Shown piece by piece: positions 1-62,407 of a stretch of 64,000 bases of DNA. Both the position numbers and the translations under genes were made by a program. Position 1 is the stretch's first letter. Every line of letters begins with the position of its first letter. The stretch spans positions 35,058 through 99,057 of the IMG/VR virus record IMGVR_UViG_3300045988_051354; one strand, written 5' to 3'. The notes under the pieces are model-generated. The model was not told where the DNA came from. It searched no databases and saw only the letters and a list, made by a program, of their open reading frames with translations. This DNA comes from a virus.

Positions 1-246
1 ATTCCTGGAATCAAAGGTCTTTATATAGTACCTCTCTAATTCCCCAAGCTTCTTAAAGTCGTCAGTATTATCTATCTCTTCTATAGTAAAGTTCTCAAGA
101 CCGTATTTACGCATAGACCTATATAAGTGTCTATCACACACTCTACTGTCTCTTATGTGACCTCTCCATCTTGCTTCTAGTGTAACTGTAGTTAAACCTA
201 TATACACCTTGCCGTTAATACTGTTAGTAATTTTATAGATAATCAT
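1..246 (-). CDS. GIY-YIG homing endonuclease (N-terminal part; the gene continues past the window start)
   Basis: Reverse complement from 246 gives MIIYKITNSINGKVYIGLTTVTLEARWRGHIRDSRVCDRHLYRSMRKYGLENF..., with GIY and YIG motifs and the conserved R/E/N. In frame to position 1 with no stop. Not in the ORF track because it runs off the window. Confidence 0.7.
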   Translation of the reverse strand, partial: MIIYKITNSINGKVYIGLTTVTLEARWRGHIRDSRVCDRHLYRSMRKYGLENFTIEEIDNTDDFKKLGELERYYIKTFDSRN

Positions 247-29135: not shown

Positions 29136-29166
29136 AAGAGTTATTTAGTTACAAGACTTAAGGGAT

Positions 29167-29238
29167 GTCGCCATCAGAGGATTCGAACCCCCTGCCACTA
29201 CGCGTACTGTGGACCCGATCAAAACGATTGTTAATGGC
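29167..29238 (-). tRNA. tRNA-like element with a good acceptor stem and T-arm but a non-canonical anticodon arm (possible pseudo-tRNA)
   Basis: Acceptor CGCCATT/GATGGCG. T-arm GGGGG-TTCGAAT-CCTCT. The middle (CCAC-AGTACGCGTA-GTGG) does not form a 5-bp/7-nt anticodon arm. Confidence 0.35.
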
Positions 29239-29552
29239 GTTGGAGCAGTGATTAAGACTTATGTCCCTAAAGAGGTATGCTGCAACCACCCCACTCCTTG
29301 TACTTCGGAGCACATCTTATTCCATATGCTAGACTCTGCTTTAGTCTTCATCGCCAGAGTTAATTATAATCCAGTCTCTAGCCTGGTTTCATTTTCACTT
29401 GCTTAAACTTACCACACTTAGTGCATACCAAAAGGTATACATGGGAATAAGGAATTTCTTCATCATTCATGTATACATTCATGTGCTTTAATTCCTTCCA
29501 ATTATGCCGACACGTTAGTTTCAGTATCCAATTCTTTAATAGCTCTTTCATA

Positions 29553-34814: not shown

Positions 34815-35080
34815 TACTTGTTAGGTTTATTAATCTTATTTACTTCCTTAATAATTGCCTCGCAATTCTCTCTGGTTGTAGTTAAACAACCTAATTGAAT
34901 GATTGAACCATCTTGAGTGACGGTAAGATTCTTATCATCAATTGTGGTTCTACATTCACTTCCCCTAATAATACTTTTAATCAATGGGTAGGGTAATGCA
35001 GTATTCTTACAGAATATTACATTCTTGCCTTCCACATAAATGACATCGTAGCCGTCAATGCTACCTACTACCTTCCTCAT
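34814..35080 (-). CDS. hypothetical protein
   Basis: 88 aa. Confidence 0.4.
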   Translation of the reverse strand: MRKVVGSIDGYDVIYVEGKNVIFCKNTALPYPLIKSIIRGSECRTTIDDKNLTVTQDGSIIQLGCLTTTRENCEAIIKEVNKINKPNK

Positions 35081-39910: not shown

Positions 39911-39960
39911 AATTTTAGTAATTAGGTTAATAATAATTTCACAACTCTTATTAATCAGCG

Positions 39961-40013
39961 CGGAGGCAGCTGGATTCGAACCAGCGGAACCCTTTCAGAG
40001 CTCGGCACGTTAG
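39961..40013 (-). tRNA. split tRNA-Ser(GCU), 3' half (anticodon-loop 3' part, class-II variable arm, T-arm, acceptor 3')
   Basis: CTAA-CGTGC-C-GAGCTCTGAAAGGGTTC-C-GCTGG-TTCGAAT-CCAGC-TGCCTCC-G. Pairs with the 5' half at 40460..40494. Together with TTG from the 5' half it forms the loop TTGCTAA. Confidence 0.6.
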
Positions 40014-40021
40014 TGACAATA

Positions 40022-40038
40022 TTAGGAATCGAACCTAA
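40022..40038 (-). other. T-arm-like hairpin TTAGG-TTCGATT-CCTAA, 8 nt upstream of the tRNA-Ser(GCU) 3' half (shared insertion-end motif)
   Basis: Near-identical to 44749..44765 and structurally equivalent to 46655..46671. Overlaps the last codons of ORF 40022. Confidence 0.5.
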
Positions 40039-40447
40039 TATTATCTAAAACTGTATCATATAAATAGTCTTCATAATTTAATGGAGTGTTCTGATTAGTC
40101 TTCCTATATGGGATAGGGACATTGATACTCTTTCTGCCATTAATTATTTCAACTGGAACTAGTAACAGAATTTTAGATTCTATATTATATAAAGAGAAGT
40201 AATCAATTTCTGATTTATCATATACATGCACTCCAGTACTAGTAGATGATGTTAATCTCCATACAATAACGTTATCTTCAAATCTCTCTGAGGTTTTACA
40301 TTGTATCTTATTTAGTTTGCCATTGAATTCAGCTATCAAGTCAGCACGTTCATTCTCTCCGAATGAAGTATAGACTGGTATACCTCTCCTAACAAACTCG
40401 GCTATCGTAATAGCCTCTCCAATGTTTCCAATTACTTTACTATTCAT
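40022..40447 (-). CDS. small PD-(D/E)xK-like nuclease inside the insertion that splits tRNA-Ser(GCU)
   Basis: SKVIGNIGEAITIAEFVRRGIPV...ERADLIAEF...KIQCK is the same pattern as ORFs 9454 and 46740. Start moved to the internal ATG because the tracked GTG start overlaps the tRNA 5' half. Confidence 0.5.
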   Translation of the reverse strand: MNSKVIGNIGEAITIAEFVRRGIPVYTSFGENERADLIAEFNGKLNKIQCKTSERFEDNVIVWRLTSSTSTGVHVYDKSEIDYFSLYNIESKILLLVPVEIINGRKSINVPIPYRKTNQNTPLNYEDYLYDTVLDNIRFDS

Positions 40448-40459
40448 ACATACATTATG

Positions 40460-40494
40460 CAATGTGCTGGTATAGACCACTCACCCATACCTCC
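40460..40494 (-). tRNA. split tRNA-Ser(GCU), 5' half (acceptor, D-arm, anticodon stem 5' strand)
   Basis: GGAGGTA-TG-GGTG-AGTGGTCTA-TACC-A-GCACA-TTG. Its acceptor pairs perfectly with TGCCTCC 480 nt away, allowing G-U. Canonical T8, A14, G18G19 and A21. Confidence 0.6.
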
Positions 40495-44677: not shown

Positions 44678-44702
44678 ACATTTTTAATTATTAGTTAATA
44701 AG

Positions 44703-44740
44703 TACCCCGACTGCGATTCGAACGCAGATATGTGGCTTAG
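44703..44740 (-). tRNA. split tRNA-Arg(UCU), 3' half
   Basis: CTAA-GCCAC-ATAT-CTGCG-TTCGAAT-CGCAG-TCGGGGT-A. Confidence 0.65.
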
Positions 44741-44748
44741 TATAAGAA

Positions 44749-44765
44749 CTAGGAGTCGAACCTAA
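44749..44765 (-). other. T-arm-like hairpin TTAGG-TTCGACT-CCTAG, 8 nt upstream of the tRNA-Arg(UCU) 3' half (shared insertion-end motif)
   Basis: See 40022..40038. Overlaps the stop codon of the HNH ORF. Confidence 0.5.
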
Positions 44766-45370
44766 TTCTTATTGTTATTAATTTCATTTTTATGGTAACG
44801 GTAATAGGAACGTTCTCCACACTTGTTCTTAGACTTATAAGTATCAAGCTGTGAATCACAGTTAGGACATATGCATCGTAAATTATCTCTACGATTGTTA
44901 GATGCATGTCCGTCTATATGGTCAATGATAAAGACCAGCTCTTTACCATTCCAGATAGGCTTCATACCACATATAGCACATACTCCACCTTGCTCTTTTA
45001 GAATATCTTTCTTGAAGGCCTTAGGAGAGTAGTTAGCTCTCATTATACTTTCATCACCGTCCAAAAGCTTCTTGTAAGCAAGCATATGAGCATGTTCAAA
45101 TTGACATTTAGGACCACAGTACTTGCCATAACTTCCGTTATAACTAATAAGTTCTGCACCACAGTTTAAACAGTATTTGTACTTCCTATTGAATGTTTCT
45201 TTAGGATTAATTTTACGTTTAATTGGTAACTCTATGCCAAGTCTACGCGCTACATTCTTAATATTAGCACCTGAACAACCATATCTTCTTCCTATTTCCT
45301 CATAACTGAGCTTATCTATCAAAATTAAATGCTCAAGTTGAGCTTTCTCGTTAATCCATTTACTTGTCAT
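44762..45370 (-). CDS. HNH homing endonuclease with N-terminal HTH, inside the insertion that splits tRNA-Arg(UCU)
   Basis: HTH LSYEEIGRRYGCSGANIKNVARRLGI. HNH motif VCAICG...FIIDHIDGHASNNRRDNLRCICPNCDSQ. Confidence 0.75.
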   Translation of the reverse strand: MTSKWINEKAQLEHLILIDKLSYEEIGRRYGCSGANIKNVARRLGIELPIKRKINPKETFNRKYKYCLNCGAELISYNGSYGKYCGPKCQFEHAHMLAYKKLLDGDESIMRANYSPKAFKKDILKEQGGVCAICGMKPIWNGKELVFIIDHIDGHASNNRRDNLRCICPNCDSQLDTYKSKNKCGERSYYRYHKNEINNNKN

Positions 45371-45486
45371 ATTCGTCTAAATTAGAAATTCGTACCTCAA
45401 AGATACGAATCTTTTACGAATTAAACAAGTAAATGGATGTTTTGTTGAAATTAATAACAGTGAGTTACGGACTCACCAGCCGTATG

Positions 45487-45520
45487 AAGGCCACTGTTCT
45501 ATCCCTTGAACTATCGAGGC
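45487..45520 (-). tRNA. split tRNA-Arg(UCU), 5' half
   Basis: GCCTCGA-TA-GTTC-AAGGGATA-GAAC-A-GTGGC-CTT. The D-arm is perfect. The acceptor pairs with TCGGGGT, and anticodon stem GTGGC pairs with GCCAC in the 3' half 746 nt away. The reconstituted loop is CTTCTAA. Confidence 0.65.
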
Positions 45521-46281: not shown

Positions 46282-46567
46282 TGTCTAATATAGCAACAGC
46301 TAGACTATAACCATTATATAATGTCCCAATAAGACGTTTAAGTTTCTTCTTTATCTTCCTAGGAAGTTTTGGAAGATTAACATTCATAAGCTCTTCAGCT
46401 TCTTTATGTCTGGCTCTAACAGCAAGTTCTAAGTTCTTAGGGACATCTTCGGAATCAAAGAATGCGTTCAATACCGGCTCCTCTGGTAACAATCTTATGA
46501 CTCTGTAAGCTACTCTTGCTTTCTTATTGTTACTGAGCTGATCAACGTGTTTAAATTTCAATTTCAT
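46241..46567 (-). CDS. hypothetical protein
   Basis: 108 aa. Confidence 0.4.
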   Translation of the reverse strand: MKLKFKHVDQLSNNKKARVAYRVIRLLPEEPVLNAFFDSEDVPKNLELAVRARHKEAEELMNVNLPKLPRKIKKKLKRLIGTLYNGYSLAVAILDNERDTISNEVQQG

Positions 46568-46592
46568 AATCTTTCATTAATAAATTAATAAG

Positions 46593-46646
46593 AGGAAGGA
46601 CAGGGATTCGAACCCTGGGATCGCTGTTACACGACCAACAGTTTTG
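46593..46646 (-). tRNA. orphan tRNA 3' half (stem, class-II variable arm, T-arm, acceptor 3') directly after tRNA-Ser(UGA)
   Basis: CAAAA-CTGTT-GGTCGTGTAACAGCGATCC-CAGGG-TTCGAAT-CCCTG-TCCTTCC-T. No 5' half lies within 100 nt. A possible 5' partner is at 47143..47200. Confidence 0.45.
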
Positions 46647-46738
46647 AGGAAGCAGTGGGACTCCAACCCACACATCACTGTTACATGATTACTGGTGCTT
46701 TTCAAGAGCACTGCCTTAGCAATTAGGCTTATACTTCC
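46647..46738 (-). tRNA. tRNA-Ser(UGA), class II (non-canonical T-loop TTGGAGT)
   Basis: GGAAGTA-TA-AGCC..GGC-A-GTGCT-CTTGAAA-AGCAC-[23-nt variable arm]-GTGGG-TTGGAGT-CCCAC-TGCTTCC-T. Confidence 0.6.
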
Positions 46739-46739
46739 A

Positions 46740-47132
46740 TTACAATGAAACTTTATATTTGTCCCATTTATCCGTAAGAGTTAGAGTACTTTTAACTGTA
46801 ATCTCACTTGAAGGAATCTCGTACATATCGCCATTGACTACTACAATAAATAATATATCACATGTAGAATTATCAAAGTGTCTAATCTTTGATTGTCCAG
46901 AGGAGCCTCCACAATTCTTTAATAGAACTTCATAGTTGCCACTCTTTGATAGGTATTGAGTAGTTTTAACAGAAACTCTCTTCAGCCCATCTCTATCTAT
47001 TGCTATATCATATTTTTGAGTATCATTTAAAGGAATCAGGACAGGAATACAATTAGTTGTATAATAAGCTATAGCTCTACCCAGCCCTAAATTGCCTTGA
47101 TGTGATTTGTAGTCGCTTTCCCAAGCGTTCAT
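46740..47132 (-). CDS. small PD-(D/E)xK-like nuclease (third paralogue) immediately upstream of tRNA-Ser(UGA)
   Basis: LGLGRAIAYYTTNCIPVLIPL...YDIAIDRDGLKRVSVK is the same pattern as ORFs 9454 and 40022. Confidence 0.5.
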   Translation of the reverse strand: MNAWESDYKSHQGNLGLGRAIAYYTTNCIPVLIPLNDTQKYDIAIDRDGLKRVSVKTTQYLSKSGNYEVLLKNCGGSSGQSKIRHFDNSTCDILFIVVVNGDMYEIPSSEITVKSTLTLTDKWDKYKVSL

Positions 47133-47142
47133 TTACATAACA

Positions 47143-47200
47143 TTAAAAATTTCTAACTGTTTATCTAACCGTTGCATTAAGCCAACTCTGCCACCCTTCC
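47143..47200 (-). tRNA. tRNA 5'-fragment-like element (Ser-like acceptor + 3-bp D-stem, long D-loop + anticodon-arm-like hairpin)
   Basis: GGAAGGG-TG-GCA-GAGTTGGCTTAA-TGC-A-ACGGT-TAGATAA-ACAGT resembles a tRNA-Ser 5' portion. The acceptor is complementary to TCCTTCC of the orphan 3' half at 46593. Confidence 0.3.
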
Positions 47201-47324
47201 ATTAATAAGAGAGCATCTATCTTTCGATTACATACTCAATGACACTCTCCGAATTACTCCGGTCCTCGACAGTAGACCTTTACTGTTTAGCTAAAGCTGT
47301 CGACACTTTAGGTTATCAGTTTCG

Positions 47325-47399
47325 CACGCCCTGCACGACTCGAACATGCAACACACCCAGTTTTGGAGACAGGGGCTCTACCGATTGAGCTAAGGACGC
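47325..47399 (-). tRNA. tRNA-Trp(CCA)
   Basis: GCGTCCT-TA-GCTC-AATCGGTA-GAGC-C-CCTGT-CTCCAAA-ACTGG-[7-nt variable]-GCATG-TTCGAGT-CGTGC-AGGGCGT-G. Confidence 0.65.
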
Positions 47400-47661
47400 A
47401 TTTTAGTTACCAATCCTGAATGATTGTAAGGAACATTACTATAAAACCCGCTGTACCTACAGCAACTCTGCCATCTTCATTTAGTGGAGAATACACTGCT
47501 ATTAGAATTAATACAAATCCTAATAATAGTTGTAATATAAACTTAACATTTCTCATAATCACGCATCTCCAGAATTAGCAATCCACATGATGTATATAAT
47601 CATAATCACACCTACGACAAATTCTGTTAACATAATCAAATACATTTAAAATTAAACATTG

Positions 47662-48807: not shown

Positions 48808-48822
48808 TTGCGGAGATGGGAG
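48808..48822. repeat. 15-nt direct repeat ttgcggagatgggag (copy of the tRNA(CAU) 49535 3' end) flanking the GIY-YIG gene; second copy at 49534..49548
   Basis: Exact 15-mer at both ends of the 48823..49473 cassette. The distal copy lies inside a 9-bp palindrome, AGATGGGAG...CTCCCATCT. Confidence 0.6.
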
Positions 48823-49473
48823 CTATTGTGCATACTCCCATCTATATCCGTATGCTGTCTTAGTCTTGTGCTTAGCTGCATTAGAGATATGGCTTCTAAC
48901 ACCTCCGTTATATGTCTTAGCATAACCATTATCAACACACCAATGTGCTGCGTCAGCCACGCTATTAAACACTTGCACAAGTATATCTTCGTTGTACTGT
49001 TCTATCTTTACTGGAGGTTTACAGGAGCCACAATGTGACTCGCTATTACTGTGGGATCTCTTGATATCCTTCACTACTTTGGACACTGTATCTGGATGAC
49101 ATCCTACTATTTTAGCAGTCTCTTTCATCGAATGTCTAGCAGCGTAGAGCTCACGAATTTCATCATAGTTCCAAATAATAGAACCATCTCCACCGGTAGT
49201 GGCATTATAACCATTACCATAGGTTTTAAATTCATTTATCCAGTAAGTTTCTCTTCCGCTAGATTCCTTTGACGAGCACTCTTCTAGCATTTCTATGCTA
49301 AATGAATCAATTCCATATTTATTCATGGCTCTATACAAAGGTCTATCTTTGCATCTCTCCTTCTTATAATCTCTACAGTGTTCTTTCCATCTCTTACTAA
49401 CGGACGAAGTAGTTTTACCTATATACTTCTTTCCATTTACATGGTTAGTTATGCAGTAAATATAAGACATCAA
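48823..49473 (-). CDS. GIY-YIG homing endonuclease (I-TevI/Seg-like)
   Basis: YIYCITNHVNGKKYIGKT (GIY and YIG), conserved R/E/N, and a C-terminal DNA-binding region. Flanked by a 15-nt direct repeat of a tRNA 3' end. Confidence 0.8.
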   Translation of the reverse strand: MMSYIYCITNHVNGKKYIGKTTSSVSKRWKEHCRDYKKERCKDRPLYRAMNKYGIDSFSIEMLEECSSKESSGRETYWINEFKTYGNGYNATTGGDGSIIWNYDEIRELYAARHSMKETAKIVGCHPDTVSKVVKDIKRSHSNSESHCGSCKPPVKIEQYNEDILVQVFNSVADAAHWCVDNGYAKTYNGGVRSHISNAAKHKTKTAYGYRWEYAQ

Positions 49474-49534
49474 GCTTTAGTCGAATTAGCGTTACCCGAA
49501 TCTCACCACGTGGAGGTTTCGACTATGAGATTCT

Positions 49535-49612
49535 TGCGGAGATGGGAGTCGAACCCAATATAACTAGCTTATGAGACTAGTATGATTTATATATCCGTTT
49601 CATTCCTCCGCA
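49535..49612 (-). tRNA. tRNA(CAU) (third CAU tRNA; extended D-arm)
   Basis: Acceptor TGCGGAG/CTCCGCA. Anticodon stem CTAGT/GCTAG with loop CTCATAA. T-arm TTGGG-TTCGACT-CCCAT. The D-loop is unusually long, at about 13 nt. Confidence 0.5.
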
Positions 49613-49615
49613 AAG

Positions 49616-49687
49616 TGCTCCATACAGGATTCAAACCTGTGACACGTAGGTTTAGGGTCTACTGTTCTATCGCTGAACTAATGGAGC
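49616..49687 (-). tRNA. candidate suppressor tRNA, anticodon CUA (reads UAG), with C33 and an A31-C39 mismatch
   Basis: GCTCCAT-TA-GTTC-AGCGATA-GAAC-A-GTAGA-CCCTAAA-CCTAC-GTGTC-ACAGG-TTTGAAT-CCTGT-ATGGAGC-A. The acceptor, D-arm and T-arm are perfect. The anticodon triplet CUA sits at 34-36 of a 7-nt loop. Confidence 0.5.
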
Positions 49688-53547: not shown

Positions 53548-53908
53548 CTTGTAAAATTAAATTAGCAGGTTAATCTGAGAGTTCTTTATTCTAATTGATA
53601 AAATGGGACACATAGACATTGAGCCAGCTTAATACAACTCGCTACTTACACACTACATGCCCCATATCAAATGAGGAAAGAGGTTCACTTGATGACCTAT
53701 CTACGTGCTGATTATAACGTAGACCGTGCAGATTCTCTCTCACACAATACTATGATGGACTCAAACCATCTCCACCCCTAGGTGAACTTTCCGTTATTCG
53801 AATAGTACAGGTTTCAACTCTTTATAACGCCTTTAAGTCAAAGTATACTCCGGAATATACTCTTAGTTCATCAGACCAAGTTTGCGCTTAGAATTATCTA
53901 AGATTAAG

Positions 53909-55431: not shown

Positions 55432-55470
55432 TGGACCATCGCGGACTCGAACCGCGGTCTTCACAACTCT
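55432..55470 (-). tRNA. orphan tRNA 3' fragment (T-arm CGCGG-TTCGAGT-CCGCG + acceptor 3' ATGGTCC-A)
   Basis: No complementary 5' acceptor lies within 100 nt. The nearest candidate is GGGCCAT at 56039, beyond about 600 nt of ORF-free sequence. Confidence 0.35.
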
Positions 55471-56166
55471 AAATAATAAGATTACGTGTGTCTCTATTTT
55501 ATTACATCAGCTGTTGAGTTCAGCATGTAGACAGTTTTATTAGTCTTATCCTGGAACCAGGTAATTAGGCTGTAATAGCCAAACCAGTACGCCAAAAGCT
55601 AATTTACAAACTACCAAACTTAAAGGTTCAGAAGCTGACGCTTCCAAACCTGGACTGACCGAAGTCGTCCCTCCACCACTCCATTTACGTTGGAGAACGT
55701 TTCTATTTGTAACCCATAGATAGGCAGTGGAGATTTCAGCTCTACTAACCTTTGGCTTTCAAGTTAATGCATCTAAGCTTCACTGTAACCTATAGGTACT
55801 ATGATTCTTCCCCGAAGGTCTCGTTATAACACTTAGATACAAACCTCTTCTGTTTCTAGGTCTCCCCATTAACCCGACTTAATCAATATGATATCGATAA
55901 GCCACAGCTTAAGCTGCCATTCTTACTTCAGTGTTGCCACTTGAAATTTGTGTATCATTTTATAAGAGTTGGTACGAACTCTACACGTCTTACTACCCAG
56001 TCATCATGAATCAATTCCATGTATGGCCCATAGTAGCATGATTATACTCTCATGCCAGGAGTGGGAAACAACCCAAAGCTTTCAGTATCCTCCTGTGCCA
56101 CTGGCGTACCCATTTCAGACTTAAAAGCTTATCAATGAATGAAAAAATGAATAGCACTGCAGAATG

Positions 56167-60912: not shown

Positions 60913-60987
60913 GTGAACCAGAGTAGATTCGAACTACTAACCTTTCTCTAGATGAGAATGTTCTTCCGGAAATTGAACTACTGGTTC
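60913..60987 (-). tRNA. tRNA-like element with non-canonical anticodon arm
   Basis: GAACCAG-TA-GTTC-[11-nt loop]-GAAC-A-TTCTC-ATCTA-GAGAA-AGGTT-AGTAG-TTCGAAT-CTACT-CTGGTTC-A. The acceptor, D-arm and T-arm are perfect. The anticodon arm is 5 bp with a 5-nt loop, or 4 bp with a 7-nt loop CATCTAG. Confidence 0.4.
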
Positions 60988-62407
60988 TAGCCCAAGCCTA
61001 TTTCACAACAAACTTGGGTTAAAGTAAATAACAACTTTATATATTATGATACACTTATTTGCATTTTACACCTAAAACTTAGAATCTTGCATGCAACTGC
61101 AATCTATTACATTTGTCTGACAAGGACAAACAACTAAGAAACTGGTGCCCTCAATGTCTTGGGATGTTATTGAGTTTTTTAAAAGTCCTTATAATCCTCT
61201 CTTTTAAGATAACTTAGAACTTTAGGTCTAGACTTGTACTTCGTCTATCCAAGTTTGTACTGTGCGAATACTTCGGATTATAGAGTGTATAGCACAATCC
61301 TCTAAAGTTTAGAGTATACACAATCTTTTGGGACTTTGTTATACTATTCTTGCCCAGGGAGTAGCGTAAACCGTCATATTAAACCGACATGTATCAATCC
61401 ACGGCCCCTTGATACTGGATCTACATTATTAGTAACGAATATAGTGCCTGTCTTTCCAGGCTGTCACCAAACTTATAAATCGGAATTGGTTTCCTGTACG
61501 GTTTATCCTTAAACTTTTAAGTGCGTTACTAGTAAACCGCCTAAAAGATACAGCACTACTGGTTTAAACTACCCTACCAGCAAGTAAAGCTCGTCTTTCC
61601 GAGCCGCCATGCTATCCCTTGTGTCACAGTACTCGCAACATACCATAACAGAACGTTCCTTTAGCCGATTACCCACACACCCCTACGTACAATGGTGGAA
61701 CGCAGCTTTCGCTACGATTAACAACTCTAGCTTTCTTCCCCTTCTTGGTTCTCCGTCATTACGGTTTGTATTATTGAAAGCGTGGAGGAATGGTCCTCAC
61801 ATTACTACTTAAAGCAATGTGGTTTTACCATTATTTACTCACAAATACATTTTCTTTGTGAGTCTATCATAGCTCTTGTACGCATTACTCGGCAGAGGAG
61901 CCTTACCGAAACCTACAATGTAGGACGCTGTTTAAAACTTAAAAATTAATATAATTAAAACAATCATGTGGACTCCTGCTTTAACGCATGAAGCAGGAAC
62001 GTTTAACTTTTGGCACTACATACATTATGTCCGTTTTGTGATGTAGGGATTCTAAGTATTTGCAACTACTCAGAAGAGCTAAACCAGGTTGCCTATCCTT
62101 TACAGCGATAGGCGTTCTGTTTATTTATAACTGCATCCAACAATTACCATGCCAAGCAAATTCTGCATCACCGATTCTCATTCTCCACTCAGAACCATCA
62201 TCAGTATAGAATTCATATTGTCTTCTGAAAGCTTCTTCACTTGAAATTGTTGTTGTATGTCCGTCTGACCAAATTATCTTATCCATAATTGTATATGTAA
62301 CTAACCTTTACGTTACGAGGTTTTAAATTGTTAATCAGACTCCTGCATATAGCAGAAGTTTCGTCCAGTCTCATCAGTGATTATTTTATAGACTCCTGGT
62401 TGTCTTA

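Follow-up and report, generated by a model that had tools for sequence, protein, structure and literature searches.

In Synechocystis, the anticodon loop of the transfer RNA (tRNA)-fMet gene is interrupted by a group I intron whose homing endonuclease, I-Ssp6803I, cuts tRNA-fMet genes in or near that loop. We analysed a stretch of 64,000 nucleotides (nt) of a large gut phage (IMG/VR virus record IMGVR_UViG_3300045988_051354, positions 35,058 to 99,057; hereafter the window), a dense minus-strand tRNA array in which one tRNA-Ser(UGA) gene (the outer gene) is interrupted by an endonuclease gene together with a second, complete tRNA-Ser(UGA) (the inner tRNA). Very probably, the outer gene was invaded in its anticodon loop by a mobile endonuclease cassette carrying a spare tRNA, i.e. 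the locus is a case of intronless homing and not a functional split tRNA. It resembles the I-Ssp6803I system (PDB 2OST, PF11645) in the endonuclease family, as judged from profile and predicted fold, in the tRNA anticodon-loop target and in that close relatives of the window gene reside in group I introns of tRNA-Ser(UGA). Unlike that system, the window has no ribozyme, the tRNA is replaced by a second complete tRNA instead of being restored by splicing, and the host is a gut phage and not a cyanobacterium. In phage T4, the gene of the endonuclease SegB lies in a tRNA cluster and, as outlined in PMC2330249, is inherited with neighbouring tRNA genes. Such intronless homing is similar in that an endonuclease in a phage tRNA array targets a tRNA sequence in relatives without it; SegB, as outlined in these sources, belongs to the GIY-YIG enzymes, recognises the T-arm and is encoded between genes, whereas the window combines a PD-(D/E)XK gene with a tRNA inside the target, flanked by the target halves (PMC2330249; PMC13096335). 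Furthermore, the linked tRNA of the window is an isoacceptor replacement of the destroyed gene.

Integrative elements enter tRNA genes via integrase and attP/attB sites and carry a replacement 3' segment. There, too, insertion brings a tRNA-preserving copy and a displaced partial copy remains, but the present locus involves a homing endonuclease, brings a complete tRNA and has a remnant on either side. Split and permuted tRNA genes are known from Archaea (Nanoarchaeum, Caldivirga), as are archaeal bulge-helix-bulge introns. Separated 5' and 3' halves with complementary acceptor strands give a superficial likeness; in contrast, the present locus has no bulge-helix-bulge motif, its anticodon loop is incomplete, its halves derive from a previously intact gene, and the host of the phage is bacterial, without splicing endonuclease. 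Genes split by endonuclease insertion include nrdA of the T4-like phage Aeh1, split by mobE, and T4 gp39/gp60. So-called fractured genes are associated with split inteins (PMC2677866). In all of these the pieces stand on either side of an endonuclease gene, as in the window, but there they are functional (subunits, trans-splicing), whereas in the window they are dead and a spare copy supplies the function. Homing endonucleases are thought to require a self-splicing intron or intein for harmless invasion of conserved genes (PMC3943268). For RNA genes the window would represent another solution, a spare and presumably cleavage-immune copy of the target beside the endonuclease gene. What is known is intronless homing; what is new is an element that sits inside its target like an intron and carries a spare tRNA instead of a ribozyme.

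The elements listed in the original prediction, namely the endonuclease open reading frame (ORF), the tRNA-Ser(UGA) with T-loop TTGGAGT, an orphan tRNA 3' half and a tRNA 5'-like fragment, are all present on the minus strand. The 5' remnant of the outer gene reads GGAAGGG-TG-GCAG-AGTTGGCTTA-ATGC-A-ACGGT and comprises the acceptor 5' strand, the D-arm and the anticodon-stem 5' strand. The 3' remnant reads AAA-ACTGT-T-GGTCGTGTAACAGCGATC-CCAGGG TTCGAAT CCCTG-TCCTTCC-T, in which AAA is followed by the anticodon-stem 3' strand ACTGT, a long variable arm, the T-arm, the acceptor strand TCCTTCC and the discriminator U. The fragment predicted at 47143-47200 is thus a real tRNA 5' piece, but its tRNA part stops at 47168 and 47167-47143 belong to the cassette. 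The anticodon-stem 3' strand GTCGT, for which only wobble pairing with ACGGT had been found, was the wrong choice of 3' strand; ACTGT (46642-46638) pairs with ACGGT (A-U, C-G, G.U, G-C, U-A), with a single G.U. Both halves are Ser-like and not Leu-like, with the acceptor start GGAAG, the variable-arm loop TGTAACAG and U73 in common with the inner tRNA-Ser.

Intact alleles were located by scanning viral contigs for the first 16 nt of the gene (L-numbers denote loci on other viral contigs compared with the window). L051 and L062 carry an uninterrupted tRNA-Ser(UGA), GGAAGGGTGGCAGAGTTGGCTTAATGCGGCAGT-CTTGAAA-ACTGTTGGTCGTGTAACAGCGATCCCAGGGTTCGAATCCCTGTCCTTCCT, and L135 carries a close variant at the same syntenic site. 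All three share with the window a membrane ORF and tRNA-Trp upstream and a 108-amino-acid (aa) ORF downstream, and in alignment their flanks are near-identical to those of the window (193-198 of 200 positions, ungapped, downstream). Because they are syntenic with the window and the gene is uninterrupted, they are empty-site alleles. The 3' half of the window is identical to L051/L062 at 53 of 53 positions, the downstream flank CTTATTAATT included, and the 5' half at 30 of 33, the differences (positions 26, 27 and 29) lying beside the insertion and being of the allele type of L004 to L006 (L004-6). By sequence comparison the two remnants are therefore halves of one class II tRNA-Ser(UGA) gene, as had been suspected, and the chance origin that had been considered for the acceptor match is refuted by uninterrupted genes containing both halves at the syntenic site. 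The endonuclease ORF and the whole tRNA-Ser(UGA) lie, as described before, in the intervening sequence, where a single T separates ORF and inner tRNA and a C at 46646 stands between inner tRNA and 3' remnant. The 35-nt spacer TAGATAAACAGTTAGAAATTTTTAATGTTATGTAA at the 5' end of the cassette is presumably the 5' untranslated region of the endonuclease gene.

The 522 nt of the cassette occupy the place of CTTG (nt 32-35) of the intact gene, in which two of the three anticodon bases lie. The anticodon is therefore lost and no joining of the halves restores the tRNA; wherever they are joined, the loop in the homologous register has at most 5 nt. L007 and L023 have retained CTT(T)G at the end of the outer 5' exon, ahead of the spacer and directly before the conserved insert start TAGATAA, hence the original junction was at about 35|36 and CTTG was lost later in the window lineage. 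Using Rfam, we found no group I core (RF00028) or other intron in 46400-47450 even at an expect value (E) of up to 10, and no intron in the whole window at the gathering threshold; the same search gives a score of 61.1 bits for RF00028 at the homologous L015 locus. The group I boundaries, a 5' exon U and an intron-final omega-G, are absent here: the insert ends ...CTTCCTC right before AAA-ACTGT, and the nearest upstream G lies 7 nt inside and 10 nt from the stem. By eye, no bulge-helix-bulge (a 4-base-pair (bp) helix with 3-nt bulges) could be drawn at the junctions of the three interrupted tRNA loci of the window, and RNA ligase domains (Rnl, RtcB, Pnkp) were found in none of 20 large ORFs scanned among the 35 of at least 180 aa in the window, itself part of a genome of roughly 180 kb.

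Several annotations of the outer gene were rejected. With introns allowed, ARAGORN reports a 'tRNA-Leu(CAA), intron 520' which is an artefact: its stem AACGG/CTGTT is shifted and lacks nucleotide 26, this register is impossible in L004-6, the halves are Ser-like and the intact allele is Ser(UGA). In L004-6 the same setting yields 'Glu(CTC)' for L004 and L005 and no call for L006, although their cassette endonuclease is 98% identical to that of the window at the protein level. Reading CTCAAAA as the full anticodon loop of the 3' half is excluded since TCAA is the native tRNA-Ser trailer in the crAss-like phages cr126_1 and IAS virus and in L008; it is also contradicted by the C74 that follows the discriminator in 22 of the 23 window tRNAs checked. 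The sole Rfam match to the 3' remnant is antisense, to the 3' half of plastid trnS.

The inner tRNA matches the Rfam tRNA model at 46.2 bits, is also called by ARAGORN, has a long variable arm and is 83-86% identical to tRNA-Ser of cr126_1 and IAS virus. Its T-loop TTGGAGT contains G56, and the discriminator U (46647) is followed by C74 (46646). The T-loop had been described as aberrant; however, the G56 type goes with the D-loop ..TTGCTAA.. (C19), whereas close relatives with TTCGAGT (C56) have ..TTGGTAA.. (G19). The odd T-loop is thus best read as a swapped tertiary pair in which C19 compensates G56, and not as a defect. In an alignment of eight relatives all 26 of 26 pairs, 19:56 included, were paired in every sequence, and the 19:56 pair was C:G in four and G:C in the other four. 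Double changes were seen in 14 of the 26 pairs, and none of 500 shuffles reached the observed score. The strong covariation and the C19 compensation therefore argue that the inner tRNA is functional, and the gene is predicted to be a working bacterial-type class II tRNA-Ser. Its anticodon stem (GTGCT/AGCAC or GTAGT/ACTAC) differs from that of the outer type (ACGGT/ACYGT). In the loci compared, the inner G56-type tRNA was found only where the outer gene is split and never near intact outer-type genes.

The PD-(D/E)XK-like nature of the 130-aa ORF, proposed in the original prediction, was borne out by Pfam, where PF11645 (PDDEXK_5) is matched at 36.2 bits (curated cut-off 26.1; E 7e-9). A profile of 18 homologs had a single match in the PDB, 2OST (I-Ssp6803I; E 9e-8), with the query motif yD...vsvK aligned over YD...VQVK of 2OST; D42 and K56 are invariant across the 18 homologs. 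In a Foldseek search with the AlphaFold model (predicted local distance difference test 88), the only significant matches were the four 2OST chains (template modelling scores 0.67-0.76, E 4e-7 to 1e-5). By profile and modelled fold, the endonuclease is thus predicted to be a clear relative of the I-Ssp6803I PD-(D/E)XK family. In total 220 homologs were found, and PF11645 was matched by all those listed except two truncated ones (P0022, P0105). Compared with homologs of 97%, 80% and 78% nucleotide identity, synonymous to non-synonymous codon changes numbered 11:2, 45:18 and 47:22, an excess from which we infer that the gene, which is intact, is maintained by purifying selection.

Homology between the window-type and L004-6-type loci spans the outer tRNA from nt 1 to nt 72, and the flanks beyond are unrelated. 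Filled and empty alleles with the same flanks were paired for L004 and L109, for L005 and L126, for L006 and L059/L036/L031, and for the window and L051/L062/L135; L003 and L016 are filled like the window. The cassette therefore occurs in at least four flank contexts, each with an empty counterpart, which points to recent homing. In addition, the 5' exon closes with 6-7 nt of the L004-6 type (A-ACGGT), whereas farther from the insert it resembles L051 in the window and in L016, and L135 in L003; L003 combines an L135-like 5' part with an L051-like 3' part. Such patches beside the insert fit co-conversion, though they fall short of proof. An assembly artefact is excluded, as many independent contigs have the same structure.

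The following mechanism would account for the locus. During co-infection the endonuclease would attack uninterrupted tRNA-Ser(UGA) genes of the outer type and cut them in or near the anticodon loop, in the way I-Ssp6803I cuts tRNA-fMet genes, and the break would be repaired from a cassette-bearing genome with the tRNA halves as homology arms. Repair would copy the cassette in and destroy the target tRNA gene. As the cassette supplies a replacement tRNA-Ser(UGA), which ordinary tRNA processing would free from the transcript, splicing would not be needed, and the differing anticodon stem presumably makes the inner tRNA resistant to cleavage. The outer halves would be non-functional as tRNA; they may persist owing to the recency of the insertion and to their use as homing arms, and would decay or be deleted in older lineages. 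Some points weigh against this explanation. That the endonuclease is active, where it would cut and that the inner tRNA would resist it are all assumed by analogy with I-Ssp6803I, and the mutual exclusivity of inner and outer tRNAs was checked within 4-14 kb per contig. Furthermore, the window-type halves still pair perfectly in a 7-bp acceptor and a 5-bp anticodon stem, which might indicate selection for an RNA function but is accounted for just as well by recency. The cassette could, moreover, have originated in either of two ways, from a group I intron that lost its core to a tRNA or by capture of a free-standing endonuclease gene with a tRNA; the nearest outgroups of the cassette-type endonuclease are free-standing and the nearest sister clade is intronic.

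The forms of the element were compared in 28 viral loci with endonuclease homologs, in which the gene almost always stands directly 5' of a class II tRNA, either Ser-UGA or a Ser-type CUA suppressor. According to a 2014 review, no phage tRNA introns were known (PMC3984707). We found, however, two group I introns with homologs of the window gene, L015 (matched by Rfam) and L278 (recognised by homology to L015), at the same position in the anticodon loop of tRNA-Ser(UGA). In the intron type the protein runs through ...TLDWGTS... into the core, a C-terminal extension seen also in many database homologs (146-148 aa), whereas the cassette type stops with ...KVSL* right before the tRNA. L018 (57% identity) has a 5'-half remnant upstream of the endonuclease gene. 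The bare insertion in L017 contains neither ribozyme nor tRNA-like module, and a TGA directly precedes the first matched residue. With intron, cassette and bare-insertion forms of one endonuclease family side by side, gain and loss of the ribozyme become directly testable.

It is possible, though doubtful, that the cassette is a degenerate group I intron whose ribozyme core gave way to, or recombined with, a tRNA-Ser(UGA) without intron, so that the relic can no longer be spliced. This explanation concerns the origin of the cassette and is compatible with present-day homing. The 73-75% identity to homologs in group I introns at the same loop position, the intron-type extension set against the abrupt cassette-type end, and the inner-type tRNA sequence of the exons around the L278 intron speak for it. 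On the other hand, the window lacks any trace of a group I core, the 5' spacer has no evident similarity to the 5' ends of the L015 or L278 introns, and in most of the distant homologs (L018-L030) the gene stands free, immediately 5' of a tRNA, a state that may be ancestral.

The original prediction had also allowed for debris from serial insertions. The word debris comes closer to what we found than a split tRNA, but the evidence points to the insertion of one cassette that is still mobile. A passive variant, in which a single illegitimate recombination or duplication in the tRNA array was inherited vertically and the endonuclease is incidental or inactive, is unlikely. Orphan T-arm and acceptor fragments are indeed common (at 29179, 49545 and 55443 in the window and several in L278), and the founding event lost 4 nt, as is typical for illegitimate joining; yet the same cassette recurs in at least four flank contexts with empty-site counterparts, its endonuclease gene is under purifying selection and the patches beside the insert look co-converted.

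Two further tRNA genes of the window, tRNA-Ser(GCU) and tRNA-Arg(UCU), are interrupted by endonuclease genes, and their anticodon loops are complete (TTGC|TAA and CTTC|TAA). Directly before nt 36 both inserts end in a 12-bp (7+5) T-loop minihelix followed by A-C, which reads GATAATA-TTAGG-TTCGATT-CCTAA-TATTGTC-AC in Ser-GCU and ATAAGAA-TTAGG-TTCGACT-CCTAG-TTCTTAT-AC in Arg-UCU. Among the Rfam tRNA matches of the window, 22 of 23 have C at position 74 and none encodes the full CCA. C74 is thus a phage-wide convention of the tRNA 3' trailer, common to the inner tRNA and the minihelices, and the minihelices therefore copy the local convention of tRNA 3' ends. In sister phages the Ser-GCU site is empty (L155), has the same minihelix form (L151, L153) or contains an endonuclease gene with a degenerate element resembling tRNA-Ser(GCU), for which ARAGORN and Rfam give no call (L150, L062). 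The Arg-UCU site is empty in L051, L062, L135, L151 and L156; in L155 and L157 it holds a short insert (about 120 nt) in which the ORF is missing but the 5' 38 nt and the minihelix are preserved. Neither the Ser-GCU nor the Arg-UCU insert yielded any known splicing element. A search of viral contigs for the minihelix (TTAGGTTCGAYTCCTAR) found the 12-bp helix only in the same close relatives, whose diversity is too small for covariation, and relatives of the endonuclease of the Ser-GCU locus occurred in only three loci of viral contigs. All three interrupted tRNAs of the window share one layout, i.e. a 5' exon to nt ~35, an endonuclease gene (of the PD-(D/E)XK type twice and HNH once), a tRNA-like module ending in N73-C74 (a whole tRNA or a 7+5-bp minihelix) and nucleotide 36. 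That such a 3' module marks a ribozyme-free class of tRNA introns, in which ribonuclease (RNase) P or RNase Z cuts the 3' splice site and a ligase seals the exons, is in our view very unlikely. If it were true, the two minihelix loci would be live examples and the main locus would be derived: its module would have expanded to a full tRNA or been exchanged for one, and the loss of the outer gene would have been tolerated.

That the main locus is a third split tRNA with joined halves, as the original prediction suggested, its intervening RNA being removed (e.g. by RNase P and RNase Z) and the halves ligated or used as a two-piece tRNA, is hardly credible, for although full acceptor and anticodon stems are kept, N73-C74 of the inner tRNA abuts nucleotide 36 with the geometry of the two minihelices and ARAGORN calls a tRNA when introns are allowed, nt 32-35 are missing and with them two anticodon bases of three, a canonical loop (UUCAAAA, anticodon CAA) is obtained solely in the shifted register that lacks nucleotide 26 and fails in L004-6, for which the ARAGORN calls are inconsistent, an RNase P cut would leave a 393-nt ORF on the 5' half, the interval has no ribozyme and the 20 of 35 large window ORFs scanned have no RNA ligase, and the 3' half has been lost in several lineages (L007, L008-L014).

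Features of the window and forms of the element in related loci. Positions are those of the window or, for L-numbers, of the respective locus; assignments are predictions from sequence.
Feature	Locus	Position	Strand	Remarks
Outer tRNA-Ser(UGA), 5' remnant (nt 1-31)	window	47168..47200	-	30/33 identity to intact gene of L051/L062
Inserted cassette, 522 nt (spacer, endonuclease gene, inner tRNA-Ser(UGA), C74)	window	46646..47167	-	absent from empty-site L051, L062, L135
Cassette 5' spacer, 35 nt	window	47133..47167	-	conserved in L004-6, L007, L023
Putative homing endonuclease gene, 130 aa, PD-(D/E)XK, I-Ssp6803I family	window	46740..47132	-	Pfam, PDB profile, AlphaFold/Foldseek
Inner tRNA-Ser(UGA), 92 nt	window	46647..46738	-	ARAGORN and Rfam
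Outer tRNA-Ser(UGA), 3' remnant (nt 36-73)	window	46593..46645	-	53/53 identity to L051/L062
tRNA-Ser(GCU), interrupted after nt ~35	window	39960-40494	-	PDDEXK_5-like ORF 40028-40447
tRNA-Arg(UCU), interrupted after nt ~35	window	44702-45520	-	HNH ORF 44762-45370
tRNA(CUA) genes	window	49615-49687 and 60913-60987
Group I intron form, 75% identity	L015	1441-2144		613-nt intron of tRNA-Ser(UGA); RF00028 core, 61.1 bits
Group I intron form, 73% identity	L278	851-1603		intron in inner-type tRNA-Ser(UGA); below Rfam gathering score, homology to L015 core by eye
Cassette form (outer 5' half, endonuclease gene, inner tRNA, outer 3' half)	window, L003, L016, L004-6, L023
Decayed cassette form	L007, L008-L014			3' half deleted; in L008-L014 5' half degraded beside the insert
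Bare insertion	L017	1453-1926		385-nt insert splitting a tRNA-Ser(UGA) and consisting of little more than the endonuclease ORF

Between tRNA-Trp and the outer 5' half lies a segment of about 115 nt (47210-47323, minus strand) that is present in L003 and L016 and not in the syntenic L051, L062 and L135; it has no Rfam match, and its fold z-score (-1.1) is not significant. Elsewhere in the array, a GIY-YIG ORF (48823-49473, minus strand) stands between copies of the 15-nt direct repeat CTCCCATCTCCGCAA (49549-49535 and 48822-48808). The repeat corresponds to the 3' strands of T-stem and acceptor in an unusual tRNA(CAT)-like sequence at about 49609-49533 that is called by neither ARAGORN nor Rfam. 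The locus (48808-49609, minus strand) looks like a further case in which an inserting endonuclease gene has duplicated the 3' end of the tRNA that it targets. Orphan 3' ends consisting of T-arm and acceptor-like strand were also seen on the minus strand within 55432-56030 (CGCGG TTCGAGT CCGCG ATGGTCC) and 29160-29300 (AGGGG TTCGAAT CCTCT GATGGCG), two regions without an ARAGORN or Rfam call. The former has a complementary GGGCCAT about 600 nt upstream, which suggests a tRNA-like or transfer-messenger RNA-like gene or a tRNA with a very long insert. The tRNA arrays of crAss-like phages contain substantial endonuclease-generated debris. For their annotation, intron-aware finders yield spurious tRNAs, such as Leu-CAA, and real isoacceptors such as the G56 tRNA-Ser may be dismissed as aberrant.

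In the whole window ARAGORN called 25 tRNAs, among them two CUA suppressors. The same array region contains a RAGATH-34 RNA (Rfam, 86.9 bits; 53804-53901, minus strand) and a RAGATH-1 hammerhead ribozyme (Rfam, 82.6 bits; 62333-62406, minus strand). A near-identity search of GenBank phages found no close relative of the window region 30-52 kb, and the replicative helicase of the window is 29-32% identical to helicases of Crassvirales phages. Most related contigs are 100-195 kb long, and some have in-frame TAG at glutamine positions. TAG also occurs in frame in the endonuclease genes of L008-L010 (1501-1890) and L278 (901-1344), where the copy of the window has Gln (CAA), which indicates TAG-to-Gln recoding in these phages. 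The 'zeta' group of crAss-like phages is described as recoded and rich in introns and inteins (PMC7886860), and we infer that the window phage agrees with this group.

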